Counted from the stretch's first letter, positions 10,652 to 29,613 are shown. The stretch: DNA of 42,038 nucleotides from an uncultured archaeon (GCA_903873955.1 CAIQQL010000131.1:1-42038), one strand, 5' to 3'. The notes: a model not told the origin generated them from the sequence alone. Program-made: numbers and translations.

Positions 10652-10700
10652 CGAAAAATTTCTGCGAAACATATTTAAAGAGCATTTGGAATATACGGAT

Positions 10701-11183: not shown

Positions 11184-11205
11184 CGCTTTTTAATAGAACA
11201 CTAAA

Positions 11206-11727
11206 ATGGTAGCTGAACAAATCGATCTTGGTTCTTTGAGTTATTTCATTCCCCTCATCAGTTTTCTCGTCGTATTCATCATCGTCTTTGCAGTATTGCA
11301 GAAGACCAAAGTCCTTGAGAATAAATGGGTCCAACTGTTCGTCTCTTTCCTCTTTGCAACAGTCTTTGTTACTTCAGTTGGTGCGCGGGGCTTTGTCTCT
11401 AGCATCATCCCCTGGTTTGCAATATTGATGGTCTGCTTATTTCTCATCTTCATTGTCTTGGCCTTTGTCGGGAAAGACCTGGACTCCATGAAAAAAGGGA
11501 TAGGCATCACTTTTGTCGTGCTTTTGATCGTCGTCTTTTTGGTAGCCGCCATCTTCTTCTTTTCTTCGGTCGTCAGCCCTTATCTTCCTGGTGGTGCGAC
11601 CTCTCCTGATGCCAATCCTGATCTTATGCGATTAAGTGAGTGGATAACTTCCTCACGTATTGGTGGAGGCATCATTCTAATCATCGTTAGCGCTGTCGTC
11701 TCTTGGGTCCTTGTCAGGGCTAAATAA
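11206..11727 (+). CDS. 5-TM membrane protein, paralogue 3 of 3
   Basis: FLVVFIIVFAVLQKTKVLENK. Confidence 0.85.
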   Translation: MVAEQIDLGSLSYFIPLISFLVVFIIVFAVLQKTKVLENKWVQLFVSFLFATVFVTSVGARGFVSSIIPWFAILMVCLFLIFIVLAFVGKDLDSMKKGIGITFVVLLIVVFLVAAIFFFSSVVSPYLPGGATSPDANPDLMRLSEWITSSRIGGGIILIIVSAVVSWVLVRAK

Positions 11728-11750
11728 TCCTCGAATCTTGTTCTAGAATT

Positions 11751-12617
11751 CTACTTCTTCTGTGCCACTGGAGGCAAACGATTTGTATTTATGGTCTGAG
11801 GGGGGGATTGCGGATGTGGCATCGGTTGCTGATTGAATACTCCGGCTTTTACAGCCATTGCCTTGAAAGTCTGCTGTGTTTCTGCAAGCTCGTGTTTTAT
11901 ATCTTCGATATTGGTGATATAATCTCCCACTTTTTGGAGCACTGAGAGTTGCAACCTATCAATGGTCTTCTCGATTCTTTTGATACGCTCATCCATGAAA
12001 TCAACCCGTGATTCCATCATATTCTTGAAGCTCAGTGCCTCTTCAATCTTCTTTTGCAGAGGCCCTAGTTTTTCAGCCATGATCTGATCGGAGATTTCAT
12101 TCAAAGTGTCCGTACTCACTCCGCCTGCTCCGTATGACCCTGAGTTGTATCCTCCTGAACTTTCAGCTTGATAACTCTGCTCAGGATAGGTACTTGGTTG
12201 CGGAGGCGCATATTCTCCCTGCATCTGGTTATATCCTGCATTAGCAAGGTAATCTGGTTGCGGAGGGTAGGCTTGCTGGTCCAGGGCAGGATAAGGCTGT
12301 TGAGGGGGTTGCTGGTAGTTCTCTTCTGGAGAAGGTATCGGTGCCTGTAGGGGTGTCTGTGGAGCAGGAGGGGCCTGGGTTGCAGGGTTTCGGTTTGGTA
12401 CGTCTAACATTGAAGGTTGCATAGACTCTGTCGCAGGTGTTGCTTGCACGTCTGATGGATCCTGTTGAGGGCTGTTCACAGCCTGTTTTATTTTTGCCTG
12501 TGCCAGTGCATCTCGGATTTCTCCAACAGGCGTTCCCTGCGTTTGCAGAGAGAAGATAATCTCCTGATCTGTCCTTCCCTCTTGTTGCATCCTCTTGATT
12601 GTTTCAATTGTCCCCAT
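11751..12617 (-). CDS. Cytoplasmic protein: small N-terminal helical domain, Q/P/Y-rich disordered linker, C-terminal coiled coil
   Basis: Composition; heptad-like LQKKIEE...MDERIKRIEKTIDRLQ region. Confidence 0.8.
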   Translation of the reverse strand: MGTIETIKRMQQEGRTDQEIIFSLQTQGTPVGEIRDALAQAKIKQAVNSPQQDPSDVQATPATESMQPSMLDVPNRNPATQAPPAPQTPLQAPIPSPEENYQQPPQQPYPALDQQAYPPQPDYLANAGYNQMQGEYAPPQPSTYPEQSYQAESSGGYNSGSYGAGGVSTDTLNEISDQIMAEKLGPLQKKIEEALSFKNMMESRVDFMDERIKRIEKTIDRLQLSVLQKVGDYITNIEDIKHELAETQQTFKAMAVKAGVFNQQPMPHPQSPPQTINTNRLPPVAQKK

Positions 12618-12656
12618 CTTTTTTATGTTGTTTTAAGCGTTGTTTGGTTTAAATCT

Positions 12657-12962
12657 TTATTCTTTTCTAAGCAAATCTATCTGCCTTTGGATTATCATCA
12701 GCTCTTCTTTTCTCGCCACTCCTGAGAGCTGTTCGGTAACCCTCTGTATGAACTCCTTCATACGTCTCATCTCTTCTTTGAGCAGCGTTACTTCTTTTTG
12801 CAGTGTCTGTTTCTCTTTGAAATTGCTTTCACGCTCTTCAATTAATGTTTGCCCTAATAACAGGACCCGATCCTTGAGCAGCCTTTGTTTTTCCTCCAAG
12901 TCTCGAATTTGTGTGGCAAGATCAACATTTACTTGCGAAACTTCCGGATAGTCTTCAGCCAT
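12657..12962 (-). CDS. Small coiled-coil protein
   Basis: 101 aa of nearly continuous heptads (IRDLEEKQRLLKDRV...LKEEMRRMKE). Confidence 0.8.
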   Translation of the reverse strand: MAEDYPEVSQVNVDLATQIRDLEEKQRLLKDRVLLLGQTLIEERESNFKEKQTLQKEVTLLKEEMRRMKEFIQRVTEQLSGVARKEELMIIQRQIDLLRKE

Positions 12963-13131
12963 TTCTATTAATAACCTCCTCGAGTTTAAAATAGTTTGGT
13001 TATGGTTTTTTACGGGCCGGTTTCTTTCTTGCGTGCCTGTTTTCTTAGGGTATCTGCTCTCCTTTTTGCCGATTATCTACGAAATCTATTTAATCCTCTC
13101 TTGGTTCTTCGCCTGAGGGAGAGATGAGCTT

Positions 13132-15402
13132 ATGATGTTTAAACCGGATGCACCACTTTATGCTACAGAAGTCGAGCGTAAGCAAGGTGAAGACACTCTC
13201 TATATCAATTTCCTCTCAGCTCCCTTCGTCCCGAGTCTTGCAGAGAATGCAATGGTCATGGAACGTGTCCTTGATTTGATGCTTGAACATCCCCAGGTGT
13301 CCCATCTCGTCTTTGTCCAGCAGCGTAATTATCATTATCCCTCTGAGCAAGTCCTTCTTTTGAGTGAGATTGCAAATATCTACAATTACATCACCAAACA
13401 AGAAAATCTGCTCTCCCTTGCCAAACTCAACTTTTTTGGAGATATCCAGCAAGCATACACTGAAGTGAGTGCGCTCACTCTTTTTTTGAGGGAGGACCCT
13501 CTAGGATGTTATACCCATCTTAAAAAGAGAATCCTCACCATCCGTAATGAACTTTCCTACCCCGGTTCTGACAACGAGGGAAGAAGAAACCTTGTGCTAT
13601 TTCTAGAGCGCCTTCTTACCATGCTTGAACAAACTACCTTAATCCGTAAATTTGCCCCCCGTCTCTCGGATTTTCCTTCTGGCAGCCGTGAAATCTATGG
13701 CCTGATCTTTCGTCCTGACATCCTTCCTAACTTCACCTTTACGCGTCTCGTCTCCCAACTCCCTCTCAATGCCGAACTTATCGACCAGTATATGCTAACC
13801 TCTGAGGGTGACGACATCACCGTCACCATCCTCCGAAGACGTGGAGATGTCAAGCATTTCTATCATATCATGCCTCCCGAATATTCCCTTTCTGAAGAGC
13901 AGCACATGCTTCTTACCCTTGCAAGAAATGTCATCATCGAACATCGTCCTAAAGCGGAAGAATTTACTGACCCTGAAAAGACCCGTCAAGTCTTTTTCAA
14001 CGTGGCAAGGGACCTCATCTCAGAACTTGCCGTATCCAAGAATATCATGATCAGTCATCGTGACCTTGCGAAACTTGCCCGTATCCTTGTCCGTTATACC
14101 ATCGGTTTTGGCCTTCTTGAAATCCTGCTCATGGATACGCATCTTCAGGATATTTCTGTTAACGCCCCTATCGCCCTCAATCCAGTCTTTGTCAGGCATG
14201 AAAAATATGACGAATGCGTAACGAACATCATCCCCAGTTTTGAAGATGCAGACTCCTGGGCAGCCAAGTTGCGTCTGCAATCCGGCAGACCTCTTGATGA
14301 AGCGAATCCCGTCCTTGATACCGATCTTGTCTTTTCCCATGCGCGGGCCAGGGTCGCTGCAGTAAAGGAGCCCTTATCACCTTCAGGGCTCGCCTATTCC
14401 TTGCGTAGGCACAGGGACAATCCTTGGACGCTGCCTCTTTTCATCAAGTTAAAAACAATCAATTCTTTCGGTGCAGGGCTCCTGAGTTTCATCATTGACG
14501 GGAATCGTACGCTTCTTGTCGCCGGGACAAGAAGCTCAGGAAAGACTTCTCTTTTGGGAAGTCTGATGCTGGAGATTATGCCGAAAGTCAGGACGATCGT
14601 CATTGAAGACACACTTGAACTTCCTGTCGATGCCTTGCGCAAAGTCGGTTACGATATCCTCCGTATGAAAGTGAGGAGCGCTTTAGTCACCGGAACGACT
14701 GAAGTTGAAGCTTCAGAAGGTATCCGTACAAGCTTGCGTCTTGGTGATTCTGCGCTTATTGTTGGTGAAGTGAGAAGTTCCGAAGCCAGGGCTTTATATG
14801 AGGCCATGCGTGTCGGCGCTCTTGCCAACGTTGTCGCAGGAACCATCCATGGTGACTCCCCCTATGGTGTGTTTGACAGAGTCGTGAATGATCTTAATGT
14901 CCCTGCAACCAGCTTTAAAGCAACCGACATCATCGTGATCACCAATCCAGTAAAGACACCGGACGGGATCCATTCTTTACGACGTGTCATGAGCATCACT
15001 GAAGTCCGTAAACACTGGGATAAAGACCCTTTACAGGAAGGAGGGTTTGTCGATCTCATGCGTTACAATGTCGAGACTGATATCCTTGAGCCAACTCCCG
15101 AGCTTATCAACGGCGAGTCTGAGGTCCTGAAAAGCATTGCGGGAAGTGTGCGAGGATGGGCAGGGAACTGGAATGCCATCTATGACAATATCATACTGCG
15201 CGGGAGAATAAAACAAGAAATCGTCGATGCAGCTCTTCGCTTCAATAAACCTGACATCCTTGAAGCCGAGTTCTGTACTGCATCTAATAACATGTTCCAT
15301 ATCCTGAGCGAAAAGTTCAAGGATGAAAAGGGTGTCCCTTTGAGTGAACAAATCTTTGCAGAATGGAAAAACTGGTTATACAGTTCGGTTGAAGATTACT
15401 GA
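13132..15402 (+). CDS. Type II/IV secretion / pilus assembly ATPase (ArlI/PilB/TadA-like) with long N-terminal extension
   Basis: Walker A AGTRSSGKTS, Asp box IEDTLEL, Walker B LIVGEVR, His box GTIHG. Confidence 0.93.
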   Translation: MMFKPDAPLYATEVERKQGEDTLYINFLSAPFVPSLAENAMVMERVLDLMLEHPQVSHLVFVQQRNYHYPSEQVLLLSEIANIYNYITKQENLLSLAKLNFFGDIQQAYTEVSALTLFLREDPLGCYTHLKKRILTIRNELSYPGSDNEGRRNLVLFLERLLTMLEQTTLIRKFAPRLSDFPSGSREIYGLIFRPDILPNFTFTRLVSQLPLNAELIDQYMLTSEGDDITVTILRRRGDVKHFYHIMPPEYSLSEEQHMLLTLARNVIIEHRPKAEEFTDPEKTRQVFFNVARDLISELAVSKNIMISHRDLAKLARILVRYTIGFGLLEILLMDTHLQDISVNAPIALNPVFVRHEKYDECVTNIIPSFEDADSWAAKLRLQSGRPLDEANPVLDTDLVFSHARARVAAVKEPLSPSGLAYSLRRHRDNPWTLPLFIKLKTINSFGAGLLSFIIDGNRTLLVAGTRSSGKTSLLGSLMLEIMPKVRTIVIEDTLELPVDALRKVGYDILRMKVRSALVTGTTEVEASEGIRTSLRLGDSALIVGEVRSSEARALYEAMRVGALANVVAGTIHGDSPYGVFDRVVNDLNVPATSFKATDIIVITNPVKTPDGIHSLRRVMSITEVRKHWDKDPLQEGGFVDLMRYNVETDILEPTPELINGESEVLKSIAGSVRGWAGNWNAIYDNIILRGRIKQEIVDAALRFNKPDILEAEFCTASNNMFHILSEKFKDEKGVPLSEQIFAEWKNWLYSSVEDY

Positions 15403-15411
15403 ATCTTTTTC

Positions 15412-17616
15412 TTACCCCGCCCCGCCCATCACCGTTGCTGCAATATATCCGAGCACTATCGTTGAAAGGAATGCCAAGATAAAATAGAGCAGCATGGCGG
15501 CTTTGAGGTTTCCAGCAATATCAAATTTTTCTCTTAACGCATCCTTGCCCGCGTCAATCGTCACCAATGCAACGGTGAGGATAAAAATAATCTCTATCAA
15601 ATAAATCCCTATCGATATCTGTAGGAAATAGGGGGGTATCATCCCCGTTGGATCGAACAATTTTAGGATCTGTGCAAAAGAACCTAAGGTGCTATCTCCT
15701 CCGGAAAGCAGGCTCTTAGAGTTCAAAAGCTTCCCGAGCACGGTAATGATCATCGCCGAGAGACCGACAACAATTCCTGACAATGCCGGCGCAAGGAAAG
15801 TCATATTTGACTTCATGTCTGATACGACTTCCGCCAGCAGATCCTTGAGACGTTCATTGATCTTCTGGATATTCTTTACATATTCAGAGATTGACATCAA
15901 GGAGTTTGCCGCAACCTGCAATCCTTTCTTTACTGACTCAACAAGGATGCGCATGGATGTTGCAATCAATGCAGAAGGGAAGTAAATAATTGCACCCCTC
16001 TTCTTATCGAAAATCGCTTTTTCAACTGGCATGCCCAATTGCTGTATATTCTGATTGATGATCACAAAAAACTGGTTGGTAGTCTGTCCCGTAGTCGATT
16101 CTGCAACCCTTGCGAATGCAATCTCTGCAGGGATACCGTCACCTAATCTGTTCCCTAGCTGGAAGAGGGAGCTGGTAAACTCATTCTCCAAAAGCTTTGT
16201 CTTCTCTCTTGATTTTATGAGATCCTTGGTCTTTTCTTTGTATGCAATAATAAAAAATACAGCGACTGCCAGCGGAATGAACAGGCTCAGGAGCACACCT
16301 AAAATTCCAAACGGTCCTGTCTTTTCAGGAGTTGCAAGGACAGTTCCATCTGAACTCACATTATTGATCTTGAAATCAAAGAGTTGTCCTTGACCAAGAA
16401 AAGTCAATCCTACGTCTTGATAAGTATAATCGCTCTGCAGATGAACTGCTGTCATCAGGGGTCCAATCTGGAAAATAAAAGGAATAAGCCCAATCAGCAA
16501 CAGCGGGAATGCAATAGCAAACGCTTTGTAATACGGCTTTTTGGAAATATATTTCGGATAGTCGGGATTGAGTTCCAGTATAGTCGAGTCTCCATATCCG
16601 CCAGGTCTTTTGAGAAGGACTTCTGATGTCAGGAAGAATACCATGAACGGGATGATGATATTAAACAGAATGACAATATGATATGCCTTTATCACTCCTC
16701 CAAGAAGAGTGGATGCTAAAGGAATCAGGGCGAGCCCTAAAGTCGGGAGGATGATGCCCAACATATAGATGGTCGATATTGGTCCGCGGATCTCCCGTGA
16801 ATACTTGAGCATCTTTTCATAGACCCCGTCAAGAATGACCTGCAGTGACTTCTCCAGAATCTGTACTCTTCGTTGTTCTGAGGGTTCATAGAGTGAAGAC
16901 TCTATCAAATGAAACGCTTCCACAAATTCAGGGGCGTACTCAACCCAGTGGTCGAGATAGGCATCAAGAGACTGTTTAATCGTAGAGTACTTTCCTGTTT
17001 CCACATCATAGAATATCTTCTTGAAATCCAGCGCCAATGCGCCTTCCAGATGCGCCGATGCAAATTCCACTGCGCGTTCGAGATTGGATGTATGTTTCAT
17101 ATAAATGACCACATACAGCACCGCCGGAACCATCTGTGAGGATGCTTTCAATTTCCAGCTATTTGCCAAACGCTGGGGCATCGTATATGCGTAATAGAAA
17201 ACAAACAAGCTGGTGATGACTCCTAAAAAAACAAACGCCAGCAGTGAACCTGGAACGGTATGTAGATTATATACCAGATAAATCCCTGTTGCAGAAAGAA
17301 GTGTCCCCAGGAATATCGCAAGCATCGAAAGTGCGGCAAGTGAGAGTGCCTGGCTTGGAGTCACATCAACATGCGCTTCGTCAAGATACTTCTGTATCTT
17401 GACCCTATCTTTTTCAGCAACCTTGATAGAAAACATGCTTCCCAATGACTTCGTCCATCGTTCATACCCGCTGATTTCCGGGACCATGTCCCGTTTGAAT
17501 TGTGAATAATCTGCAGATTCCCCCCCAGAACCTGCTGAAGCCTCATTCCCTCCTCCACCTATCTCTGATTCAATCCGTGCACTATATTTTTTTAAGATAT
17601 CGTCTGCGCTAACCAT
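15412..17616 (-). CDS. Pilus membrane platform protein (T2SS F domain; TadB/TadC/ArlJ-like)
   Basis: Two TM clusters, each preceded by a soluble helical domain (SNLERAVEFAS...LALDFKKI; LGNRLGDGIPAEIAF); adjacent to ATPase and pilins. Confidence 0.82.
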   Translation of the reverse strand: MVSADDILKKYSARIESEIGGGGNEASAGSGGESADYSQFKRDMVPEISGYERWTKSLGSMFSIKVAEKDRVKIQKYLDEAHVDVTPSQALSLAALSMLAIFLGTLLSATGIYLVYNLHTVPGSLLAFVFLGVITSLFVFYYAYTMPQRLANSWKLKASSQMVPAVLYVVIYMKHTSNLERAVEFASAHLEGALALDFKKIFYDVETGKYSTIKQSLDAYLDHWVEYAPEFVEAFHLIESSLYEPSEQRRVQILEKSLQVILDGVYEKMLKYSREIRGPISTIYMLGIILPTLGLALIPLASTLLGGVIKAYHIVILFNIIIPFMVFFLTSEVLLKRPGGYGDSTILELNPDYPKYISKKPYYKAFAIAFPLLLIGLIPFIFQIGPLMTAVHLQSDYTYQDVGLTFLGQGQLFDFKINNVSSDGTVLATPEKTGPFGILGVLLSLFIPLAVAVFFIIAYKEKTKDLIKSREKTKLLENEFTSSLFQLGNRLGDGIPAEIAFARVAESTTGQTTNQFFVIINQNIQQLGMPVEKAIFDKKRGAIIYFPSALIATSMRILVESVKKGLQVAANSLMSISEYVKNIQKINERLKDLLAEVVSDMKSNMTFLAPALSGIVVGLSAMIITVLGKLLNSKSLLSGGDSTLGSFAQILKLFDPTGMIPPYFLQISIGIYLIEIIFILTVALVTIDAGKDALREKFDIAGNLKAAMLLYFILAFLSTIVLGYIAATVMGGAG

Positions 17617-17720
17617 GTCCTCTTTTACCTTTTTTTCTATGGGAAAAGAGTATTATAAACTGTGCGGTGGCGTTGCTGATATGCCATAGGATTTAATAAG
17701 AGCTGTCGCATTGATTTTTT

Positions 17721-17897
17721 ATGTATCGGGTCACAAAAAGGGGGCAGATGAGCGCCATTGGATGGAATTATTTTGTCCCACTCATCATTGCAGTGGTAGT
17801 GCTTGCGTTAGTGCTTATCTCTTATTTTGCCTTGCGTGACAGTGGAAACGGCGCCCTTGATTTTTTTAAAAATCTGTTCCGATTAGGCAAACCATGA
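17721..17897 (+). CDS. Micro-pilin 1 (58 aa, class III signal peptide)
   Basis: Manual translation MYRVTKRG/QMSAIGWNYFVPLIIAVVVLALVLISYFALRDSGNGALDFFKNLFRLGKP; stop overlaps next ATG (ATGA). Confidence 0.82.
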   Translation: MYRVTKRGQMSAIGWNYFVPLIIAVVVLALVLISYFALRDSGNGALDFFKNLFRLGKP

Positions 17898-19018
17898 ACA
17901 AAAAAGGAATGACCGAAACTGAGGTGGTAGTGGCAGTTGTCGCAGTCTCAATCATGGTTATCGTTCTCCTTTTTTTCGGGCCTTACTTCATTAAAGTCAT
18001 CATCCCGATCATACGGGGCACGGCGATCAATGGTTCTGTGCAGATGACTACCGGGCCAGAGATTTTACGTTATAGACTTCTGACTGGGGAAGTGCAATGG
18101 TATGATGGGACCAATTGGCAAGTATTTCCCTCTGATCCAATCATTCTCGGGACTAAGTTTCTTAAACAGAACGATGTAAAATCCGCATTTGAGCAACGCC
18201 TAGGGTCCACCTTTTCACAATCCACTTCGTTTACTCTTGGAGGATCCTCTTATGTTTTCAGCGGGCTAATGACCGGGGCCTACACCCTTGAGAAAGATAT
18301 CTTGATTGCGACTCCTAACATGCGTTCCTATCCTTTAACCTCTTTTTATGTATTCAATGAGGGAGAGGTCATTATCACCACCGATGGTTCGGTCTACCAG
18401 CGTACTTCTCCCGCAGATTCCCTTTCTGTCGGGTCGCTCAGCTTTAACAATGATCAGGCAACGTTTAGCGTCAAACTCTCTGATTCTTTGTCTCCTGCCC
18501 AAAAAGCCTTCCTTACCCCGCTAGATGGCCTGACTTTTTCACTTTCAAAACCCCTTCCTGCACGTCTAAGCCTAGACTCTTCCACATCTCTTCTTTTTTC
18601 CTCTGAGAAGAGCTATACTGATGGTGCGTTGTTCAATCCCACCAATTTTCATGAAACAGTATACACTTTCAGAAGCAGTGCCAAAGCGGTGCCAGGGGCA
18701 GAGCTGACCATTGTTCAATCAGGCCCTAATGATGATCCTAAGACCATGACTTTTATCAGAGGTACGCTCACCTTCCATCCCGCACTAGGGGGGAAGTTTA
18801 CCTTGCAGAGCACTCCTACGGGTAATGCCGCTGCCTTATTGTCCCAGACCAATAAACTAATTGATCAGTCTTTCTCTCGGCCTCTCTCAATCCCTTACCA
18901 GCCCGTGAAGGATGGCAAACCCTTTGGTCCGGTCCAATCAGTATCTGTTTGCACGAAAAAAGTAAATGGGGCCGATCTTGTTGTCGATTTGACTGCTCCT
19001 GCAGTAAGCTGTTCATGA
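17894..19018 (+). CDS. Pilin-like protein, 374 aa
   Basis: MNKKG/MTETE + hydrophobic stretch; S/T-rich beta-type body; C-terminal Cys pair. Confidence 0.85.
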   Translation: MNKKGMTETEVVVAVVAVSIMVIVLLFFGPYFIKVIIPIIRGTAINGSVQMTTGPEILRYRLLTGEVQWYDGTNWQVFPSDPIILGTKFLKQNDVKSAFEQRLGSTFSQSTSFTLGGSSYVFSGLMTGAYTLEKDILIATPNMRSYPLTSFYVFNEGEVIITTDGSVYQRTSPADSLSVGSLSFNNDQATFSVKLSDSLSPAQKAFLTPLDGLTFSLSKPLPARLSLDSSTSLLFSSEKSYTDGALFNPTNFHETVYTFRSSAKAVPGAELTIVQSGPNDDPKTMTFIRGTLTFHPALGGKFTLQSTPTGNAAALLSQTNKLIDQSFSRPLSIPYQPVKDGKPFGPVQSVSVCTKKVNGADLVVDLTAPAVSCS

Positions 19019-19143
19019 ACCTCTGGTCAAAAAAAGGTGAAAAGCTGGAGAGCGAAGGGATGCTGGGGACACTTATCTGGGTGATTGTGCTCATCCTTTT
19101 TCTTGGGGCCGCTTACTATATCTTCAAACGACTAACTTCGTAA
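19015..19143 (+). CDS. Micro-pilin 2 (42 aa, class III signal peptide)
   Basis: MNLWSKKG/EKLESEGMLGTLIWVIVLILFLGAAYYIFKRLTS; ATGA overlap with upstream stop. Confidence 0.75.
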   Translation: MNLWSKKGEKLESEGMLGTLIWVIVLILFLGAAYYIFKRLTS

Positions 19144-19174
19144 TTGTTTTAAACTTCATTTTCATTGGTACCAT

Positions 19175-20290
19175 ATGAGTTTTAGAGTAAAAAAAGGGGA
19201 GCTTACTTCCGAGCAGATTGTAATCTGGGTGATTGTCATAGCTTCGTTCATCATCATCATCGCATTCATAGCCGGTCTTAATCTTACAGGCATGACTGAT
19301 GAAGAGCAATGCAAGCTTTCTGTCGTCAGCCGAGCGACCATGCCCCTTGATGTCGCTAAAAGCTTTATTCCTCTCAACTGCAACACGAAAAAGATCTGTA
19401 TCACCAGCGGCAAAGGCAACTGCGGAGATGTTTTTGGAGGAGAGTCGCCACAAATCATCTCTCTCCCGGGTGACCCTAAAGCGGCAATAAAACTCATCGA
19501 AAAGACAAGCGCAGACGAAATGTACTCTTGCTGGAATGTGATGGGAAAAGGAAAGCTAGACCTTTTTAACAATGCGAAAGCAAAGTTTGGAGTAAACAGC
19601 GCAAAACGCGTTTGTGTTATGTGCTCGAGAATAGCCATCGACCCGAGCGTTAATGCCTCCCTGCTTGAGCAGGTCGATATTAATACCTATATGCAACTCA
19701 ATCAGATTTCATCTAACAGTGAGCAGACCTATCTGCAGGCTATGACTGATAATCAGTTCAATGCCTATGCGAAATCCATCAATGATTTCAAGTACAGGGA
19801 AGAACTCAATACGACCTCTTCTGGTCAAACTGCCATTGGAACGACAAGCAAAGAAAAAGTAACCCTCAATGGTCAAACCGAAATAATCAACCGCCAGATG
19901 GCTTTTATCTTCACTCAAATAAAATCTCCTTCCGTTTCAACTGTTCTAGCTAACCAATTTGAGACTGCTGCAGCTGTGGGGGCAGGTTTCGCCCTCGCTC
20001 CTGGAAAAGGCCTGGTGACGAAAACCGCTGGTTGGGCCCTTCAGCTTGTCGCAGGCAAATATATCAAGATTGTAAAGGTAGCCGTTGCTGTTGCTGCCGT
20101 GGCTGGAGCCGCCACCGTTGCAGGTTATGGTGTATACAATTCCCGTCAGGGTCAACTTATCGCTGCATCTTACTGTGGCAATTTCACTTCAAATGAGCAA
20201 GTCAAAACGGGATGTTCCATCGTCCAAGGCGTCAATTATGATGTTCCGGACATTAATTCATTTTGTGATTATTTTGATGGCAACTTATGA
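19175..20290 (+). CDS. Pilin-like protein, 371 aa, Cys-rich with distal Gly/Ala-rich hydrophobic segment
   Basis: MSFRVKKG/ELTSE + TM; multiple Cys (CKLS, LNCNT, CW, CVMC). Confidence 0.85.
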   Translation: MSFRVKKGELTSEQIVIWVIVIASFIIIIAFIAGLNLTGMTDEEQCKLSVVSRATMPLDVAKSFIPLNCNTKKICITSGKGNCGDVFGGESPQIISLPGDPKAAIKLIEKTSADEMYSCWNVMGKGKLDLFNNAKAKFGVNSAKRVCVMCSRIAIDPSVNASLLEQVDINTYMQLNQISSNSEQTYLQAMTDNQFNAYAKSINDFKYREELNTTSSGQTAIGTTSKEKVTLNGQTEIINRQMAFIFTQIKSPSVSTVLANQFETAAAVGAGFALAPGKGLVTKTAGWALQLVAGKYIKIVKVAVAVAAVAGAATVAGYGVYNSRQGQLIAASYCGNFTSNEQVKTGCSIVQGVNYDVPDINSFCDYFDGNL

Positions 20291-22485
20291 AGTTACGAAA
20301 GAGAGGCATGCTAGAGAAAGAAGTTTTGGGGTTAATTATTGCAGTCCTTGCGCTCAGTCTTTTTATCTATGCGGGTTTCAAACTCTACAGCCTCTGGATT
20401 AACCAAGAGGACCAAAATGCGCAAAAGATTATTGACCTTGTCAATGCCAAAGCCAAGTCATTAAGTGAAGGCCAAACAAAGGATTTTCCCATCCGAGGTC
20501 TCGATGACTGGATGCTTACCGGCTGGGGTGTGAACGAGGTGGGAAGGCCTGACCAATGCTATTTCAAGAGTTGTGTCTGTATCTGCAAATACGCTTCCTC
20601 TCGCGCCGATCAGGCCGCGAGCTGCAAGAGCAAAAGCCATTGTTTTTTTACTGATGACAAAGCAATCTATACCTATAACGACCAGCGCGGGATAAAACTT
20701 GCTCAGACACCTGCACTGATGGAAATTGAAATCTCCCGCAAAGGAGGTGTCTTCTCCATGAAAAACACTGCAGGAGAAGGGGATGTGTGGACCGCATATG
20801 ATTATCTTAAGGCCATGTGCTTTATGCGTGATATCGATAATCCCGACATGGACAAGGCTGTCTCTGCAGTGGTTGACCGCTCCGCTCAAAGCGCAGGACT
20901 TATTGTTGCAGACGCCAGGACTCTTTCTGCCGCTGACTCGCTCCAGGCAGCAATAAATGCCGGCGCAGATGTCATGATCCAAGATGGAACCAGGGTCAGC
21001 GGTCTTGACTCTTACCTGAATTCTCTCAAGGGTTTTTCTGAAAGCACACTTGAACTAAAATCTGCCGCGGAGAATGCAGTCATAAAAAACTTTCCTGAAC
21101 AAGGAATCTACAATATCGTGTGGGATCCAGTAAACAAGAAAGTCATCGGTCAAGTCACTCAGGGAGGTATGATAAAAAAAGTCTCTCAGTCAACTTTAGA
21201 TGTCTTACTTAAATCCAAGGACATTACAGGTGTGGCCGGACTTTATGGCCAAACCGGTGGAAGCATCATAAAAGCCAGTCCAAAAATTGCCGAAGATGCT
21301 GTTGTCCTTGCCAAAGATGGCACAACCTTGGGGAAATTTAGTGACGCTGTTTTGCAGTCCAAGAATGGAGTGCTCAAATTTATCCCTAAAAGCACGACGG
21401 TGGGAAAAACTCTTGCAAAGCTTGGAGGAAAAGTGTTTGCAGTCTGGGGTCTCGCGTGTGATATCACCACCATAGGCATTGCAGGGGTTGAATTTGCGAA
21501 GATGATCAATGCCCAAACGCAGGAGACGGTCGCAGGTCAGGCACTTGACCAACTCATCACGCAAACCATGCCTGAAACAGCTTCCAGAGTTGTTGATCAA
21601 GAAAAAAATACCCTTACTGATTTTGAAAGTGTAAACACACAGACTCTTTCAACTTTGCCTCAAGCTCGTACTCTTATCTTCCAAATGCATGCCTTCTTGG
21701 ATGATGCGACAAGTGAAGTTTCCTATCTCGCGAATCGTACGCGTCGCTTCTCAACTAACTATGACCAAGAGGGGAGCTCGACTATAACCTATGCTGAACA
21801 GAAAATTCTTCAATTGCAACTTGGGCATTTGAGGGAGCAACTCGCCCTTTATGATGCCCAATTCCAAATCCTAAATGAATCGGTCTTAAGAAACTCTGAT
21901 GTAAGCTCTGCCTCTCCTTTCATATTCGAGAAAACTCCACAAACTCCTTTTGACCTGACTATGGACTATGCCCGTTTTTCAACTGACCCTAAGAGCTACT
22001 TCTCAGATGTCATACGAGACAACACCCCTAACCCCAATGTTCCCGTAAGCATTTATAGCTCCGCAAACACTCTTTTTTCCTTTGATAAAACCGATACTTC
22101 CCCGCCTTTTCTTGCCTTCAGTCATCAAAAGATCGGAACTGTCGCTGGCGATGGAACCATCACTATCGATCCGACCCTTCGGTCCAATCTTCTGCAACAA
22201 AATGCCAACAATGCTCCGGTCCTTGCGCAGTTAAGTCATTATCTTCCCCTATTAGACCATGCAAAAGTAAGCCGTTATGAGATCTTCCCTTATATTCCTG
22301 CCCAAGACACGAAAGACAATGCGGACCAGAATTCTTTTCTGAATGATCTGCAGACCCTTCCTGATCCCAATACTGATCTTGAGGTGTATACTTCCTCAGC
22401 TCCACCTGAAGGGTCACTTCCTCAGGACCTCACGAGCTCATCTGACAGCATTTCCTCTTCAATCACTCAGGAGGCAGTTAGTTAA
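20287..22485 (+). CDS. Pilin-like protein with long C-terminal extension, 732 aa
   Basis: MKLRKRG/MLEKE + TM; RPDQCYFKSCVCIC Cys cluster; ATGA overlap. Confidence 0.85.
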   Translation: MKLRKRGMLEKEVLGLIIAVLALSLFIYAGFKLYSLWINQEDQNAQKIIDLVNAKAKSLSEGQTKDFPIRGLDDWMLTGWGVNEVGRPDQCYFKSCVCICKYASSRADQAASCKSKSHCFFTDDKAIYTYNDQRGIKLAQTPALMEIEISRKGGVFSMKNTAGEGDVWTAYDYLKAMCFMRDIDNPDMDKAVSAVVDRSAQSAGLIVADARTLSAADSLQAAINAGADVMIQDGTRVSGLDSYLNSLKGFSESTLELKSAAENAVIKNFPEQGIYNIVWDPVNKKVIGQVTQGGMIKKVSQSTLDVLLKSKDITGVAGLYGQTGGSIIKASPKIAEDAVVLAKDGTTLGKFSDAVLQSKNGVLKFIPKSTTVGKTLAKLGGKVFAVWGLACDITTIGIAGVEFAKMINAQTQETVAGQALDQLITQTMPETASRVVDQEKNTLTDFESVNTQTLSTLPQARTLIFQMHAFLDDATSEVSYLANRTRRFSTNYDQEGSSTITYAEQKILQLQLGHLREQLALYDAQFQILNESVLRNSDVSSASPFIFEKTPQTPFDLTMDYARFSTDPKSYFSDVIRDNTPNPNVPVSIYSSANTLFSFDKTDTSPPFLAFSHQKIGTVAGDGTITIDPTLRSNLLQQNANNAPVLAQLSHYLPLLDHAKVSRYEIFPYIPAQDTKDNADQNSFLNDLQTLPDPNTDLEVYTSSAPPEGSLPQDLTSSSDSISSSITQEAVS

Positions 22486-22487
22486 CC

Positions 22488-22931
22488 ATGCTTTCGCTAG
22501 GGCGCAGAGGGGGAGTTGGAGACATGCTTTGGGACAATATCGTCTACATCCTTTTCATTCTTGCATTTACGACAATCATGGCATTTTATGTCTATGCCCA
22601 GCAAGATGCCTCAGCGGTTTGGGCAGACTATTATGCAAAGGAGATTGTCAAGGTTGTCGATACCTCTCAACCTGGAGAGGCGATCACCCTGGATGTGCAT
22701 CGTGCGACCATCATCGCAAAGGACCATCAAATACCTTACAATCAAATCTTCTCTTTTGACAATCTCCACCATGCTGTCTGTGTGCAATTAAGCAGGGGTA
22801 GAGCGACCTGTTATGGTTATTTTACCGATGTCCTCCTTACTGAGCCTACTATTGAATTGGGAGTGCCCATCAATGTTTTGCATTTTAATGTCACGGAAAC
22901 CTCCTATGCTCCTGGCAAGGTGTCTTCATGA
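22488..22931 (+). CDS. Pilin-like protein, 147 aa
   Basis: LGRRG/GVGD + hydrophobic stretch. Confidence 0.8.
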   Translation: MLSLGRRGGVGDMLWDNIVYILFILAFTTIMAFYVYAQQDASAVWADYYAKEIVKVVDTSQPGEAITLDVHRATIIAKDHQIPYNQIFSFDNLHHAVCVQLSRGRATCYGYFTDVLLTEPTIELGVPINVLHFNVTETSYAPGKVSS

Positions 22932-23407
22932 ACCTGCGAGCCCAGTTAGGGGATCAGGTCATGGTCTTCACCTATCTTTTTATCATGGTCATGGTTGCAG
23001 GATCCATCGTAGGCGGGGTTGTTCTTTTTTATGGAACGGAAATTGACTTTCGTCCAACTGAAGTGCAGCTTTTAACCCGTGCAGTCGACCATTGTTTAAC
23101 TTTAGACACCTTTAACTGGGACAAGGCGCAAAACGATTCTTCATATTTTTTCACCGTCTGCAATCTAAACAAATCAGCTTTGGAATCCCATACCAATCAA
23201 TTGAAAGTTTGCGTGAACTCAAAGGGCTGTATCTCTGAACCTCATCCCCTTATCGCTGTTGGATCCGATTTCCTTTTTTGCGGACTTTCCGGTGTACAAG
23301 CAAATGAAAAGCTTCCCCGTTGTCTTGTTAGTTCCTTAGTCATCTCCGGAAAGAATGTGCAGATCATTGCAAGCAGCAACCAAAAAGCAACACAGGGGGT
23401 CGCCTGA
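22928..23407 (+). CDS. Pilin-like protein, 159 aa
   Basis: MNLRA/QLGD + hydrophobic stretch; 6 Cys; ATGA overlap. Confidence 0.8.
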   Translation: MNLRAQLGDQVMVFTYLFIMVMVAGSIVGGVVLFYGTEIDFRPTEVQLLTRAVDHCLTLDTFNWDKAQNDSSYFFTVCNLNKSALESHTNQLKVCVNSKGCISEPHPLIAVGSDFLFCGLSGVQANEKLPRCLVSSLVISGKNVQIIASSNQKATQGVA

Positions 23408-24009
23408 TGCGCCTCTTGAACAAACGAGGAATTATGGGGAAGCTCTTAAGTGCTATCCCTGTCCTTTTTATCCTCTTTTTTGTCATTATCATCTTCTTTG
23501 TCCTTACTGCCTCGATGAGTGGCACTCTTTTTTCCAGCGGTTCAGGGAATTCTCTCACCCTCTCTCCTGTCCTTTTACCTCCTAGTCCCCTTCTTTTCCA
23601 AGAAATTGCGTTTCCTGTCCAAGAAAAGGGCCAGACCCTACTAGTCTCGGATAGCCTCATCCTTTGGGACAAGGGGCAAATCACTCCGGAGCAACTTTCT
23701 TCAGCATTAGAGAAATTACCTGTTCCTGATGGTACCTGTCTTGCCCTTGCTGCCGCATTGGACTCAAATCCTAGCGATGTTAGCTTTTCGATCGATGGTG
23801 CGCCTGGGAACAAACTGGTTCTCTTTCTCGAATTCCATAATGGAAAGGTCACCAATAGATGGTGGGTCTATTCTTATCTGAGTGATTATAAGAAAGCCAA
23901 TCTGCTCTATCCTCTCCAGCTCACCTATCTCTCTGGTGGAAAATCCCGAACCGTGTTTGCTGAATCCTATCTCGGTCCGTGCCTGTCTGCCGCAGGAGGA
24001 TCATCATGA
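23407..24009 (+). CDS. Pilin-like protein, 200 aa
   Basis: LNKRG/IMGK + hydrophobic stretch; TGATG overlap. Confidence 0.8.
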   Translation: MRLLNKRGIMGKLLSAIPVLFILFFVIIIFFVLTASMSGTLFSSGSGNSLTLSPVLLPPSPLLFQEIAFPVQEKGQTLLVSDSLILWDKGQITPEQLSSALEKLPVPDGTCLALAAALDSNPSDVSFSIDGAPGNKLVLFLEFHNGKVTNRWWVYSYLSDYKKANLLYPLQLTYLSGGKSRTVFAESYLGPCLSAAGGSS

Positions 24010-24443
24010 ATCGGAGAGCAAACCTTCCTATGACCCTTCTCTTTTTTGTGTGTCTGTTTTTACTTACCCTTGCGCTTTTTTCGTTCGCTACCTTCAAAAA
24101 AACCCAGGACCAAACCCTGTCAGACAGTTCTATGCTCACCTCTCAGTTGGAGTTCAAAGAGCAGTACGTCCGAGCGACAGCAAGGTCTTTATTCACCGAG
24201 GCTTTGGTGCATCCCTCTTCTGATGTCTCCGCTCAATTGCAGTCTGTAGCTGTACGCAGGGATTTGGGTTTAGTCGGTATCGGCAATCTTTTTGCAAAGA
24301 TCAGGGATAAGGACTTCACCCTTGAAGACAAAGGTGATCGCTGGGTACTGACCCTGAAAGACGTTTTTGTGACCTCTCAAGTCGGTCAACACAGGCTTAC
24401 CCGGACATTCACAATTATCCTCGAATCTCGAAAAGGTTTATAA
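24006..24443 (+). CDS. Pilin-like protein, 145 aa
   Basis: MNRRA/NLPM + hydrophobic stretch; start reassigned to ATGA overlap at 24006. Confidence 0.8.
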   Translation: MNRRANLPMTLLFFVCLFLLTLALFSFATFKKTQDQTLSDSSMLTSQLEFKEQYVRATARSLFTEALVHPSSDVSAQLQSVAVRRDLGLVGIGNLFAKIRDKDFTLEDKGDRWVLTLKDVFVTSQVGQHRLTRTFTIILESRKGL

Positions 24444-24444
24444 A
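24429..24444 (+). promoter_or_regulatory. Near-consensus BRE-TATA upstream of last pilin gene
   Basis: cgaaaagg-tttataaa, TATA at 24437-24444, ATG at 24467. Confidence 0.6.
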
Positions 24445-24466
24445 TAATGAGTGTTTACGTTAGTTT

Positions 24467-25039
24467 ATGATAAGGAGGTTGAACAGAAAGAGGGCCAAAT
24501 GGCTGGGTAGCAAAGGTGCTGCTGATGAAGGGAGCATGGTCATCTGGCTTGTTGTCGCTATTGCGGCAGCGGTCATTGTTCTCCTGTTCTTCTATGGAGG
24601 TTATGATATGATCAAAGGACTTTTTCCTTCGAAAGCCCTCACTATGGAGGCAGCCGTACAAGTTTGTAAGAACATAGGGCCTTCCTTTACAACAACACTT
24701 TGCGATAACTGGAAAGCAGTCACCATTGCGGGTGGCGACCAACTTGTTAATTGTCAATATCCCGATATACAGAACAAAATGGACTTGTCTTCGCAATTGA
24801 GATGCGGAAATACTACTGACTATAAAGATTATGGTGCGCAATATTGCATGACTCTTTTTAAGGTTAACAAAGATTATACCTCTGAACTTCGCGTCAATGG
24901 CGTACTCTGTTCGAGTTTGAGTTGTGAGGGGCTTGGAGGAAGCAGTATTGCTTCCAATAGTTCTTGTGCAACAGGTTCCGTAGAAAGAACTAAAGGGTTT
25001 GCCGGGGTTTCAGGTTCCAAGTGTTGTGTCACAGCTTAA
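24467..25039 (+). CDS. Pilin-like protein, 190 aa, Cys-rich
   Basis: GSKG/AADEG + hydrophobic stretch; ~10 Cys ending KCCV. Confidence 0.8.
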   Translation: MIRRLNRKRAKWLGSKGAADEGSMVIWLVVAIAAAVIVLLFFYGGYDMIKGLFPSKALTMEAAVQVCKNIGPSFTTTLCDNWKAVTIAGGDQLVNCQYPDIQNKMDLSSQLRCGNTTDYKDYGAQYCMTLFKVNKDYTSELRVNGVLCSSLSCEGLGGSSIASNSSCATGSVERTKGFAGVSGSKCCVTA

Positions 25040-25048
25040 AGTAATTCT

Positions 25049-25183
25049 ATGAGCGATTATTGCGTCCCCGAACGTCGAAAGAATAAGAACGATAAACGTG
25101 CAAAGTCCCGTTTTAACAAATATAAGCGGGGCGGGGCGCAGAGGTCAACTACCATCACCCTGTCCAGCACCAAGTCTGAATAA
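25049..25183 (+). CDS. Small basic protein (44 aa), unknown function
   Basis: Manual translation MSDYCVPERRKNKNDKRAKSRFNKYKRGGAQRSTTITLSSTKSE; starts 9 nt after the pilin stop. Confidence 0.5.
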   Translation: MSDYCVPERRKNKNDKRAKSRFNKYKRGGAQRSTTITLSSTKSE

Positions 25184-25227
25184 TACTTCTCTGGACTATT
25201 AGAATCTCGGATTAAAAAAAGATTTTC

Positions 25228-26199
25228 CTATCTGGCTTTCTCTTGAATAATCTTTATCGCATAGAAAAGAATAAGCGGTCCTACTATCACTCCCACTATA
25301 CCAAAAAGAGGCACTCCGCCGACAACCCCGATCAACATGAGCAAGGGATTCATCTGGGTCCCTTCACCCATAAGCTTGCTTCGTAGAACCGTGTCTATGC
25401 CTATCATGATCACTATTGCCCCAATGACCAATATCCCTATCCCTGCAACCATATTGCCCATCGCAATATAGATGACCCCTAATGGGAGCCAGATACCCGC
25501 GGTCCCAATTCCCGGGACGAATGCAAACAAGCCGAGCAACGCGCCATAAAAGAGGGGGGCGTTAACTCCAAGGGCTGAAAACACAACTGACGCAATGATA
25601 AAGTCTACAATCGCAACAATCAATGTCCCGCGTATTATTGCATGTGTTGCTTGGTCTATCTCCTTTGCGATCTTATCCTTATTCTTGAACGGAAGATACT
25701 GCTGCAGGAACACCGTGATCTCATCCCAATGTACGAGGAAATAATACATCCCCCAGAAGATGATCAGAAGCGCGAGGATGAGAAAGGGAATATATGAGAC
25801 GAGTGAGGTGATTGTTGATATGATAAAATTCACTCCGCTTTGCCGTAAGCCATTCAAATCGAGACCTGAATTTTTCAAGAATTCATTCTGGGAAATCTTG
25901 TTTAGAAGTGCCTGAACATCATTCTGATTCAAAGACGTATATGCCTGTTGGGCTACTCCTCCAATAATGAGCAGCAGCGGGAAAAAAATAATGAATCCCA
26001 TAAATACTATACAGACCAGGGCAGAATTCCTGTCCGACATCCTCTTCCTCAATCGCAGGTACACCGGACGGAGGAGGTACGCCAGGATGAATGAAGAAAT
26101 TATCGTGATGATATATCTTTTGACAATATAGTAACTGAGCACTAAAAGCAGGGCTACTATCCCCCAGAACATGTACTTCTCAAAACCCTCTTTTTCCAT
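25228..26199 (-). CDS. AI-2E (PerM/UPF0118) family transporter
   Basis: LAYLLRPVY, FAFVPGIG..IWLP, DTVLRSKL, NPLLMLIGVVGG..LFGIVG.IVGP. Confidence 0.9.
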   Translation of the reverse strand: MEKEGFEKYMFWGIVALLLVLSYYIVKRYIITIISSFILAYLLRPVYLRLRKRMSDRNSALVCIVFMGFIIFFPLLLIIGGVAQQAYTSLNQNDVQALLNKISQNEFLKNSGLDLNGLRQSGVNFIISTITSLVSYIPFLILALLIIFWGMYYFLVHWDEITVFLQQYLPFKNKDKIAKEIDQATHAIIRGTLIVAIVDFIIASVVFSALGVNAPLFYGALLGLFAFVPGIGTAGIWLPLGVIYIAMGNMVAGIGILVIGAIVIMIGIDTVLRSKLMGEGTQMNPLLMLIGVVGGVPLFGIVGVIVGPLILFYAIKIIQEKAR

Positions 26200-26250
26200 T
26201 ATTCTATCTACGATACTAAGGTTAATAAAGATTCTTTATATTACAGGGGC

Positions 26251-27102
26251 ATGGAGGAATACTATTTTCTATTTGGGTTGGCTATCCTCTGGACTTTTTT
26301 TGCAACCATCCAGGACCTCAAGACGCGGGAAGTCGCAAATTGGATCACTTTTTCCCTGATTGGATTTGCGTTGACCTATAGAGGTTTCTATGCGCTTCTG
26401 TATCACGACTTTGCGTTTTTCTATCTCGGTGTTCTAGGCTGTCTTATCTTTGTAGCTTTGGCCTTCATGTTTTATTATGGGCGTGTTTTTGCGGGAGGTG
26501 ATGCCAAACTTCTTATGGGTATCGGGGCAATCCTGCCTTTTACCGGCGTACTGCAATTCGCTTTATGGAGTGCTTTGTTTTTGTTCCTTCTTTTCTTCTC
26601 AGGTGCCTGTTATAGTGTGTTTTATAGCCTGCTTCTTGTCACGAGAAACTATGCCTCCTTCAAACGGTCATTCAAGCAAAAGCTGCATACTTTTCGTCTA
26701 ATCCTTCTTCTCGCAGCAGTTTGCGCTATGGTCGTTCTTCTTGCCTTAGGACTGCATACCCTGGGCATAGTGTCCGCATTATTTGTCTTTGGTATTCCTA
26801 TCCTGTATGCCTATCTTAAATCTCTTGAAGAGACTTGCATGATAAAACTCACTTCCCCTGACAAGCTTACTGAAGGCGACTGGCTTGAAAAAGAAGTTCG
26901 TCTGGGGAAACGTCTCATCTCGAGGAGTGTGCATGGCCTGACCTTAGAAGAGATTGGACTTTTACGCAAAGCCAAGAAAAAAGTTTACATCAAGGAAGGA
27001 ATCCCCTTTGTTCCTGCATTTTTTATCGCGCTGGTCTTTACGGCACTCTTCTTTTTAATTTTACGACTGGATTTTCAGACGATTTTTTGGTTTCTATTTT
27101 AA
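26251..27102 (+). CDS. Prepilin/class III signal peptidase (A24; PibD/ArlK-like)
   Basis: Catalytic Asp motifs QDLKTREV and AGGDAKL; C-terminal GIPFVPAF. Confidence 0.92.
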   Translation: MEEYYFLFGLAILWTFFATIQDLKTREVANWITFSLIGFALTYRGFYALLYHDFAFFYLGVLGCLIFVALAFMFYYGRVFAGGDAKLLMGIGAILPFTGVLQFALWSALFLFLLFFSGACYSVFYSLLLVTRNYASFKRSFKQKLHTFRLILLLAAVCAMVVLLALGLHTLGIVSALFVFGIPILYAYLKSLEETCMIKLTSPDKLTEGDWLEKEVRLGKRLISRSVHGLTLEEIGLLRKAKKKVYIKEGIPFVPAFFIALVFTALFFLILRLDFQTIFWFLF

Positions 27103-29576: not shown

Positions 29577-29613
29577 GCATTACCTTTATATCTTTCTTTA
29601 CTCTTTTTAGTCC

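Follow-up and report, generated by a model that had tools for sequence, protein, structure and literature searches.

A type IV pilus-like locus in a Pacearchaeota-type archaeon

Pacearchaeota and Woesearchaeota are archaea that are abundant, uncultivated and dependent on hosts; their means of contact with other cells is the question behind this analysis. The locus lies on contig CAIQQL010000131.1 (C131) of the uncultured archaeon assembly GCA_903873955.1 (1.23 Mb in 154 contigs, 89% complete). The whole contig of 42,038 nucleotides was analysed and is called the window below. A preliminary description, made by inspection of the DNA, had singled out positions 11751-27102 as a complete Tad/type IV pilus-like locus for host contact, with a secretion ATPase, a platform protein, a prepilin peptidase and ten tandem, mutually dissimilar pilins. 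Is this a complete filament machine, to which type does it belong, and what would it be used for?

That the interval 11751-27102 is a complete type IV pilus-like gene cluster of a Pacearchaeota-type DPANN archaeon is well supported: domain, structure, gene-order and motif evidence agree on the locus and on its ten dissimilar pilin-like genes, as had been described. We put the probability at roughly 0.8 that it is a lineage-typical type IV filament cluster of Pacearchaeota-type DPANN which builds a mini-pilin filament, likeliest for attachment. From 10608 to 27102 the order is u2, u1, g01 (-), g02 (-), ATPase (+), platform (-), the ten pilin-like genes (+), p10 (+), a transporter (-) and the A24 peptidase (+). 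The conserved block also takes in the two coiled-coil proteins (g01, g02) and the two small membrane proteins (u2, u1) upstream.

The archaeal markers RadA/Rad51, Gins51, SRP54/FtsY and an RPA-like OB-fold protein were found in the window by a Pfam scan. Relatives of the platform protein occur on 401 stretches, and those among the 80 listed carry titles of metagenome-assembled genomes of Pacearchaeota, Woesearchaeota or Nanoarchaeota, with one exception noted below. The window itself occurs in five listed DNA sequencing runs, all from freshwater sediment or lake metagenomes. For comparison, 27 stretches of 20 kb were used, 15 from the same order (the order-level loci below) and 12 from other orders; these 12 were chosen for long contigs and not at random.

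ATPase, platform and peptidase

The machinery is encoded by three genes (aa, amino acids; TM, transmembrane):

13132-15402, + strand: secretion ATPase, 756 aa; Pfam T2SSE, E 1.4e-12, 47.4 bits against a cut-off of 24.9
15412-17616, - strand: platform protein, 734 aa; about 9-10 TM segments; two GspF/T2SSF-like cytoplasmic domains, roughly at residues 155-290 and 465-600
26251-27102, + strand: A24 (FlaK/PibD-type) prepilin peptidase, 283 aa; Pfam PF01478, E 2.7e-12, 47.5 bits against a cut-off of 26.5

The ATPase had been recognised correctly. In addition to the Pfam match it has a Walker A motif (GTRSSGKT at 465), a Walker B motif (ALIVGEVR near 545), a His box (TIHG near 572) and an IEDT box. 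Its relation to the named families was judged by curated-model scores and by bit scores against PDB sequences, which stand in for a tree. The best NCBIfam match is the TadA family (TIGR03819, where it reaches 134 bits and the cut-off is 373), followed by FlaI (NF058587, 132 against 550) and BasE (62 against 1000). All three scores are far below the curated cut-offs. Among PDB sequences, GspE2 of A. fulgidus (2oap) scored 106 bits (E 1.8e-29), CpaF 87 bits (E 7.7e-24) and FlaI 69 bits (E 4e-18). An N-terminal extension of about 225-290 aa is well conserved in the orthologue alignment. Judged by its sequence, the protein is a very divergent ATPase of the ArlI/GspE2/CpaF (VirB11) type with its catalytic motifs intact.

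The platform protein is much harder to recognise. Pfam T2SSF did not match it even at E<=10, NCBIfam gave no match at E<=0.01, and an hmmsearch of PDB sequences with a profile of 12 platform sequences gave 0 matches. The platform alignment was also compared by hhalign with the two T2SSF proteins encoded on contig C123 of the same genome, used as single-sequence templates, and the result was not significant (probabilities of 0.6 and 2.2). Foldseek with the whole model found nothing at E<=1e-3, and the PilC structure 3jc8_Ca came only at rank 8.

Relatives and a structural comparison were more informative. There are 4594 homologues at E<=1e-3; among the 120 listed, three carry a precomputed PF00482 match and five bear the name “Flp pilus assembly protein TadB” in one source. 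T2SSF was found in three of the five orthologues scanned, in two stretches each, with E-values of 5e-6 to 3e-5 and scores of 24.5-26.9 bits, which straddle the cut-off of 25.2. The best stretches are residues 158-289 in one orthologue and 464-583 in two others. An AlphaFold2 (AF2) model of the platform protein (predicted local distance difference test, pLDDT, 77.8; predicted template modelling score, pTM, 0.73) was then aligned exhaustively by VIA-align to 48,161 PDB representatives. The top match was the N-terminal domain of PilC (2whn; Z 12.0, root mean square deviation 2.5, 103 of 103 residues), followed by PilC 3jc8_Ca (Z 11.9), SpoIIIAB 6bs9 (10.7), EpsF 2vma (10.5) and TcpE 4hhx (9.1); a Z near 12 is a level that VIA-align rates as uncertain for helical bundles. 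All five of these GspF-type structures map to residues 463-597, and the next match, which is unrelated, has a Z of 7.6. We accept the identity because five GspF-family structures agree with the Pfam matches of the orthologues. From sequence and model, the 734-aa protein is thus a very divergent single-gene platform of the GspF/PilC/TadC type with two GspF-like domains, and its earlier naming as a T2SS-F platform was right despite the missing Pfam match.

The peptidase was also named correctly. It matches FlaK (3s0x) with an E-value of 3.7e-6, and both Asp22 and the GGD84 motif are present, whose aspartates we take to be the catalytic pair by analogy with FlaK/PibD. No other A24 peptidase was found in the 89%-complete genome, and for this reason it probably serves all type IV filament systems of the cell.

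Two observations on orthologues may be added. ATPase orthologues at G010:C47:1486-5298, at G014:C2:39898-43712 and in G015 (C82 + C39) have a long in-frame insert after residue ~488-495, just downstream of the Walker A region; the open frames are 874-1276 aa long and the inserts are intein-like. A platform homologue with 55% identity is encoded on DATJPO010000041.1, which is titled “Candidatus Omnitrophota bacterium” and is probably a mis-binned archaeal contig.

The ten pilin-like genes

The ten genes between 17721 and 25039 are listed below, with ^ for the predicted cleavage site:

17721-17897, + strand: p1, mini-pilin, 58 aa; signal ..TKRG^Q; one TM helix and an amphipathic C-terminus ending L/F-R-F/L-G
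17894-19018, + strand: p2, pilin-like, 374 aa; signal MNKKG^M; C-terminal part variable; BLAST match in 1 of 15 order-level loci
19015-19143, + strand: p2b, mini-pilin-like peptide, 42 aa; signal ..SKKG^E
19175-20290, + strand: p3, Cys-rich pilin-like, 371 aa; signal ..VKKG^E; N-terminal helix followed by an alpha/beta domain
20287-22485, + strand: p4, pilin-like, 732 aa; signal ..RKRG^M; conserved pilin-like module of ~130 aa, then a rare extension of ~530 aa
22488-22931, + strand: p5, pilin-like, 147 aa; signal ..GRRG^G; homologues in 6 of 15 order-level loci
22928-23407, + strand: p6, pilin-like, 159 aa; signal MNLRA^Q; homologues in 4 of 15 order-level loci
23407-24009, + strand: p7, pilin-like, 200 aa; signal ..NKRG^I
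24006-24443, + strand: p8, pilin-like, 145 aa; signal MNRRA^N; its ATG at 24006 overlaps the stop of p7
24467-25039, + strand: p9, Cys-rich (10 Cys) pilin-like, 190 aa; signal ..GSKG^A

Positions, sizes and the six overlapping junctions are all as first described. Five of the overlaps are ATGA and one is TGATG, and the remaining gaps measure 31, 2 and 23 bases. None of the genes is multi-copy; they form a single-copy, tightly packed run, and no paralogue of the ten proteins was found elsewhere in the genome at E<=1e-3. The proteins had been called dissimilar beyond the N-terminal helix, and pairwise BLAST gave the same picture, with a best E-value of 0.005 and no similarity past the N-terminus.

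The basic start that had been noticed on each gene, [KR][GA] directly before a single N-terminal hydrophobic segment, is present in all ten. A FlaFind-type pattern, as distinct from the FlaFind program itself, matched eight of them. The Pfam model Class_IIIsignal (PF04021) was not found in the genome, a weak negative since the model rang in only 1 of 14 controls. A first, crude class III pattern matched 53 of 1416 open reading frames (ORFs) and caught ordinary Sec signals too; it was replaced by a stricter one. With the strict pattern, 78 of the 318 ORFs in the 9 kb downstream of ATPase and platform were hit in 26 related loci, versus 11 of 319 elsewhere in the same stretches. When these 78 sites are aligned, N stands at position -4 in 42 and K at -3 in 67. 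Position -2 is K or R, and position -1 is G in 63 and A in 15; between this site and the hydrophobic helix lie a few polar residues, which are often acidic. By this alignment, the pilin-like ORFs of the related loci have a conserved N-K-[KR]-[GA] motif before the predicted cleavage site.

The likeliest shaft subunit, by analogy, is p1. Its helix-only build matches that of the Epd major pilin and of Flp, neither of which has a globular domain, and we therefore treat it as the candidate major subunit. The tail ending L/F-R-F/L-G was read in 10 related loci, which defines a family of roughly 50-aa peptides with a class III leader. At the position of p2b, peptides of 41-45 aa are found in three related loci (L021, L023 and L025).

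Of the larger proteins, p3 matches 101 homologues at E<=1e-5, all of them free of Pfam domains, and has eight invariant Cys. Its profile was found in 53 of 81 genomes sampled from the phylum, often far from the platform gene. The mean pLDDT of the AF2 model of p3 is 76.2; within residues 11-200 and 330-371, most blocks exceed 85. Foldseek found no structural match to it at E<=1e-3 and the best VIA-align Z was 3.7, which proves neither a new fold nor that p3 is not a pilin. The conserved module of p4 is widespread (673 representative clusters at E<=1e-3). Its extension beyond residue ~170 is covered by only two sequences (P0224 and P0225) besides p4 itself among the 150 representatives listed, and p4 relatives have 170-206 aa versus 732 aa here. 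Similarly, p8 has 145 aa here and 467 aa in its L021 orthologue; its most likely start is the ATG at 24006, with a GTG at 23979 as the alternative. Such an architecture, in which the N-terminal module is kept and the outer domain can be exchanged, would be expected of surface-exposed recognition proteins.

Conservation of the locus

The ATPase was found in all 41 genomes of the order, our own included, mostly at full length and with 55-77% identity, and the platform protein in 299 of 301 genomes sampled evenly over the phylum. All platform matches were rated at least “same class”, and outside the order the identity is typically 40-46% over the full length. No match was obtained in G102 and G317, which are 97% and 93% complete. 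The sample includes two unpublished genomes, G283 and G284, each with a match; leaving them out gives 297 of 299. The locus is thus standard equipment of the lineage.

Among the 27 stretches, 26 contain the ATPase. The platform gene lies within 1.2 kb of it in 21 of the 26, at 2.1 kb in one and outside the stretch in four. In different families and orders alike, u2, u1, g01 and g02 lie ahead of the ATPase gene, and the A24 peptidase gene is near the locus in 9 of the 15 order-level loci. At least four strict class III ORFs follow ATPase and platform in 12 of 26 loci. Synteny in relatives, on which the first reading depended, is thus kept for the upstream block, the ATPase and the platform; for the pilin operon it holds in these 12 loci and fails in the other 14. 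The scattered positions of p3 and the loci with no adjoining pilins agree with the published finding that DPANN pilins are more scattered (PMC13705601).

In other families, ATPase, platform and pilin genes are co-directional with gaps of tens of bases. The inverted platform gene was seen in the present genus only (the window, L021 and L023), and here the platform gene and p1 share an AT-rich divergent intergenic region of 104 bp.

Relation to described systems

The core of this machine has been published in outline. Hamm et al. 2024 (PMC11291902) describe type IV pilus-like loci that encode CpaF, TadC and coiled-coil proteins and are conserved across cluster-2 DPANN, including Woesearchaeota and Pacearchaeota, and report that some proteins of such loci were seen by proteomics in cultivated Ca. 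Nanohaloarchaeum antarcticus. The set of lineages, the CpaF-like ATPase, the TadC-like platform and the adjoining coiled-coil proteins are the same as here, a likeness of composition and not of directly compared sequences. By this analogy, g01 is probably their coiled-coil protein (CCP), because a nucleoporin found among its structural neighbours fits the published “putative nucleopore domains”. Their CCPs are likened to viral attachment proteins, whereas g01 and g02 have neither a signal nor a TM segment. As filament proteins, the passages of that paper on these loci name only FlaF and PilA, and only in one of two loci. In the same passages there is no mention of a ten-gene operon, mini-pilins, an NK[KR][GA] motif or a peptidase.

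Components of type IV filaments were found in 2942 DPANN genomes by Sivabalasarma & Albers 2026 (PMC13705601). Adjoining pairs of an arCOG01818 ATPase and an arCOG01814 platform are counted there in Woesearchaeota, Aenigmarchaeota, Nanobdella and N. equitans (supplement S4), and we infer that the ATPase and platform of the window belong to these two arCOGs. Pacearchaeota genomes were assigned to “system 1”, “aap pilus” or “ambiguous” on the basis of one to five arCOGs. According to this census, DPANN loci are rarely ordered and their pilins are scattered, whereas here and in the 12 related loci one ordered operon stands beside the motor. Earlier, Makarova et al. 2016 (PMC4858521) had noted a coiled-coil component in subclade 4F, the ATPase of which occurs in nanoarchaea with no identifiable pilins.

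The Epd pilus of Methanococcus maripaludis (“system 1”) and the Tad (Flp) pilus share with our locus a multi-gene operon, an A24 peptidase dedicated to the system, several minor pilins and a major pilin (here the candidate p1) that lacks a globular domain, as far as PMC13705601 describes them; for p1 and the Epd major pilin the likeness is one of description. However, “system 1” has two separate platform genes versus the one 734-aa gene here, and Tad differs in its ATPase (see the TadA score above) and in its pilins, with no Flp or TadE Pfam match among the nine pilin-like proteins scanned. The pilin-like genes are also more numerous and more varied than in either system. The genome contains a canonical system as well. 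On contig C123 (2595-9162), a 509-aa ATPase (T2SSE, E 1.3e-29) has class III-type genes and two T2SSF platform genes, separate from each other, as neighbours; PMC13705601 describes this arrangement for archaeal “system 1”. This ATPase scores 375, 157 and 262 bits against GspE2 (2oap), CpaF and FlaI. A third T2SSF gene lies on contig C40. As a separate observation, contig C139 has a run of five tandem class III-like genes (1652-5047) with no motor nearby.

A functional analogy is offered by the type IV pili of episymbiotic Saccharibacteria, a Candidate Phyla Radiation (CPR) group, where ultrasmall host-dependent cells also keep a machine of this kind (PMC9894109, PMC11623550). Those are bacterial type IVa pili (PilB/PilC/PilT, in a secretin-less monoderm) with unrelated subunits, and that they are needed for host association was tested there. 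According to a 2020 preprint (10.1101/2020.05.14.094862), components of type IV pili are “missing in DPANN genomes”, a ground on which it used pili to tell CPR from DPANN in groundwater; it also reported Pacearchaeota to be enriched in the large-cell size fraction, which was read as host attachment. The impression that pili are missing arises because the platform and all scanned pilin-like genes escape Pfam and NCBIfam. Annotation thus misses a machine that nearly all sampled genomes of the phylum have kept.

The novelty implied by the preliminary description has to be reduced accordingly: the core is in PMC11291902 and its gene pairs were counted in PMC13705601. The statement that no experimentally characterised system has this make-up stands. 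Full-text searches found no published account of how the pilin operon is made up, with its ten genes, its mini-pilin family, its p3 family and its NK[KR][GA] motif, although figures 15-23 of the supplement of Hamm et al., and file 7 and part of file 4 of the PMC13705601 supplement, may describe some of these. Since the core is already published, the value of the window lies in being a clean, complete and ordered example. Candidate parts for experiments are the mini-pilin p1, the cleavage motif that related loci conserve, the Cys-rich p3 family, for which structure searches gave no match, and those C-terminal modules that vary.

Proposed mechanism and alternative explanations

In the reading that we prefer, the peptidase would cut the pilin-like proteins after the conserved N-K-[KR]-[G/A]. 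A hexamer of the ATPase would dock on the platform, perhaps scaffolded by the two cytoplasmic coiled-coil proteins. (A complex prediction of the N-terminal 300 residues of the ATPase with the C-terminus of g01 and with g02 scored 0.00, which has no bearing on binding.) ATPase and platform would then move the hydrophobic N-terminal helices from the membrane into a thin filament. Its shaft would consist mainly of the roughly 50-aa, helix-only mini-pilin p1 and possibly also of p2b. The eight larger pilin-like proteins (p2-p9) may prime the filament or form its cap, and would display globular domains that are variable and in part Cys-rich. Because the group has a reduced, host-dependent lifestyle, the likeliest use would be attachment to a host cell or surface. 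A host-contact function and a complex tip, both suggested from the start, would be plausible.

Several points weigh against this reading. For this organism the filament, the cleavage of its subunits and their expression are predictions, and both the role of p1 as major subunit and the role in adhesion are putative. No RNA runs containing the stretch are listed, which is no evidence either way. Pfam pilin families did not match any of the nine pilin-like proteins scanned (p2b left out) at E<=0.01, NCBIfam gave only a chance-level PsbJ match to p9 (16 bits against a cut-off of 57), and the p3 model has no likeness to known pilins in Foldseek or VIA-align. The [KR][GA] pattern is shared by 47 of the 138 single-TM ORFs in the rest of the genome, many of which may be true substrates. 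At this background, the chance of ten in ten is about 0.34 to the tenth power. Still, since the pattern is so common in the genome, the ten signals are not decisive on their own, and the comparison with related loci carries the weight. The A24 peptidase is the only one of the genome, so its position need not mark the pilin-like genes as special substrates. Furthermore, 14 of 26 loci have no cluster of four or more class III genes beside ATPase and platform, and the canonical ATPase and two T2SSF genes on C123 could in principle assemble these pilins.

The strongest competitor, which we nevertheless consider unlikely, is a short pseudopilus of a type II secretion or Com/competence-like system, used for the uptake of DNA or host material or for protein secretion rather than as a long adhesive pilus. 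Eight larger minor-pilin-like genes with only tiny shaft candidates would suit such a structure, and near-universal presence in a phylum of reduced genomes would suit a nutritional role. The operon is followed here by an RPA-like OB-fold gene, YdjM and RadA, and in 10 related loci by the OB-fold gene; this neighbourhood may, however, be plain inherited synteny among kin. Neither a ComEC-like channel nor DprA or a nuclease was seen in Pfam scans of the window, and helix-only mini-pilins do form long Tad and Epd filaments (PMC13705601).

It is improbable that the ten genes encode subunits of the canonical C123 system (Epd/“system 1”-like) and stand beside the divergent ATPase and platform by chance. 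Many Pacearchaeota have been assigned to “system 1” on scattered pilin arCOGs (PMC13705601, supplement S5), the p3 gene is often far from the platform, and the 14 loci mentioned above lack a pilin cluster adjoining the ATPase/platform pair. In several families and orders, however, the adjoining pilins follow the divergent platform co-directionally and with very short gaps, and the C123 locus has class III-type genes of its own next to it.

There is also a slim chance that the ten proteins are N-terminally anchored surface proteins, signal-anchored or bindosome-like, which do not polymerise. This would account for the frequency of [KR][GA] before N-terminal TM segments in the genome, for the lack of pilin-family matches and for the p3 model with no pilin-like structural match. 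It does not explain why N-K-[KR]-[GA] is kept across orthologues that otherwise diverge fast, nor the linkage to ATPase, platform and peptidase, and the members of 42 and 58 aa are too small to be more than a helix.

The probability of a degenerate archaellum, a motility structure, is negligible: the ATPase does match the FlaI model over most of its length and the peptidase is FlaK-like, but the FlaI score is less than a quarter of its cut-off, archaellin (PF01917) was not found at E<=0.01 in the 89%-complete genome with a control that rang in four archaeal genomes, so that the absence of archaellin noted at first sight is upheld, and general scans (Pfam and NCBIfam for the locus proteins, Pfam for the other window proteins), with no search aimed at them, showed no ArlH, ArlF/G or ArlCDE/X.

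A more far-reaching version of the attachment reading seems doubtful to us at present. In this version, the ATPase/platform pair would build a general host-contact organelle of Pacearchaeota and Woesearchaeota, a Flp-like mini-pilin filament with a tip of up to eight proteins, on which fast-evolving, Cys-rich domains with new folds (p3, the p4 extension and p9) would decide which hosts are recognised. Host DNA or other material might be drawn in by this machine as well. If the host-contact reading is true, the pilin operon would give the first access to host range in this huge group of uncultivated archaea, and p3 would represent a new extracellular fold family.

Flanking genes and other observations

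The genes around the motor and the pilin operon are as follows:

10608-11183, + strand: u2, membrane protein, 191 aa; ~5 TM segments; no Pfam family; in 11 of 15 order-level loci
11206-11727, + strand: u1, membrane protein, 173 aa; 5-6 TM segments; no Pfam family; in 9 of 15 order-level loci
11751-12617, - strand: g01, 288 aa, no TM segment; small N-terminal helical domain, Pro/Gln-rich linker, C-terminal coiled coil; in 13 of 15 order-level loci
12657-12962, - strand: g02, coiled-coil protein, 101 aa, no TM segment; in 11 of 15 order-level loci
25049-25183, + strand: p10, very basic peptide, 44 aa, no hydrophobic segment; not a pilin
between p10 and the A24 peptidase gene, - strand: AI-2E family transporter; among the 15 order-level loci, in L021 only
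after the A24 peptidase gene: HIT-family gene

The membrane proteins u2 and u1 are paralogous. Among the class-level loci, u2 was found in L120, L123 and L126, and u1 in these three and in L125. The Atlas neighbours of g01 are only Nanobdellota hypothetical proteins; one structural neighbour is nucleoporin p62/Nsp1_C. In L021 and L023 the peptide p10 is likewise encoded right after the pilin operon, in L034 elsewhere in the stretch, and whether it is part of the pilus system is uncertain. The AI-2E family transporter probably has no relation to it.

Downstream of the pilin operon, an RPA-like OB-fold gene, a gene for a YdjM membrane protein and RadA occupy 28626-31167 (+ strand). The OB-fold gene follows the operon in 10 related loci too; the neighbourhood may simply have been inherited, or it may hint at a connection with DNA handling.

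Further away, the window encodes other putative surface or exported proteins. A 1295-aa protein (2770-6657, + strand) has a Sec-like N-terminus, many N-x-S/T sites near its start and no Pfam family, and is possibly a large surface protein. Two adjoining signal-peptide proteins of 234 and 221 aa, with no Pfam family, lie in the region 31173-32566 (- strand). Finally, a 332-aa protein (35607-36605, - strand) combines galaxin-like repeats with a repetitive Gly/Pro/Ser-rich N-terminal part.

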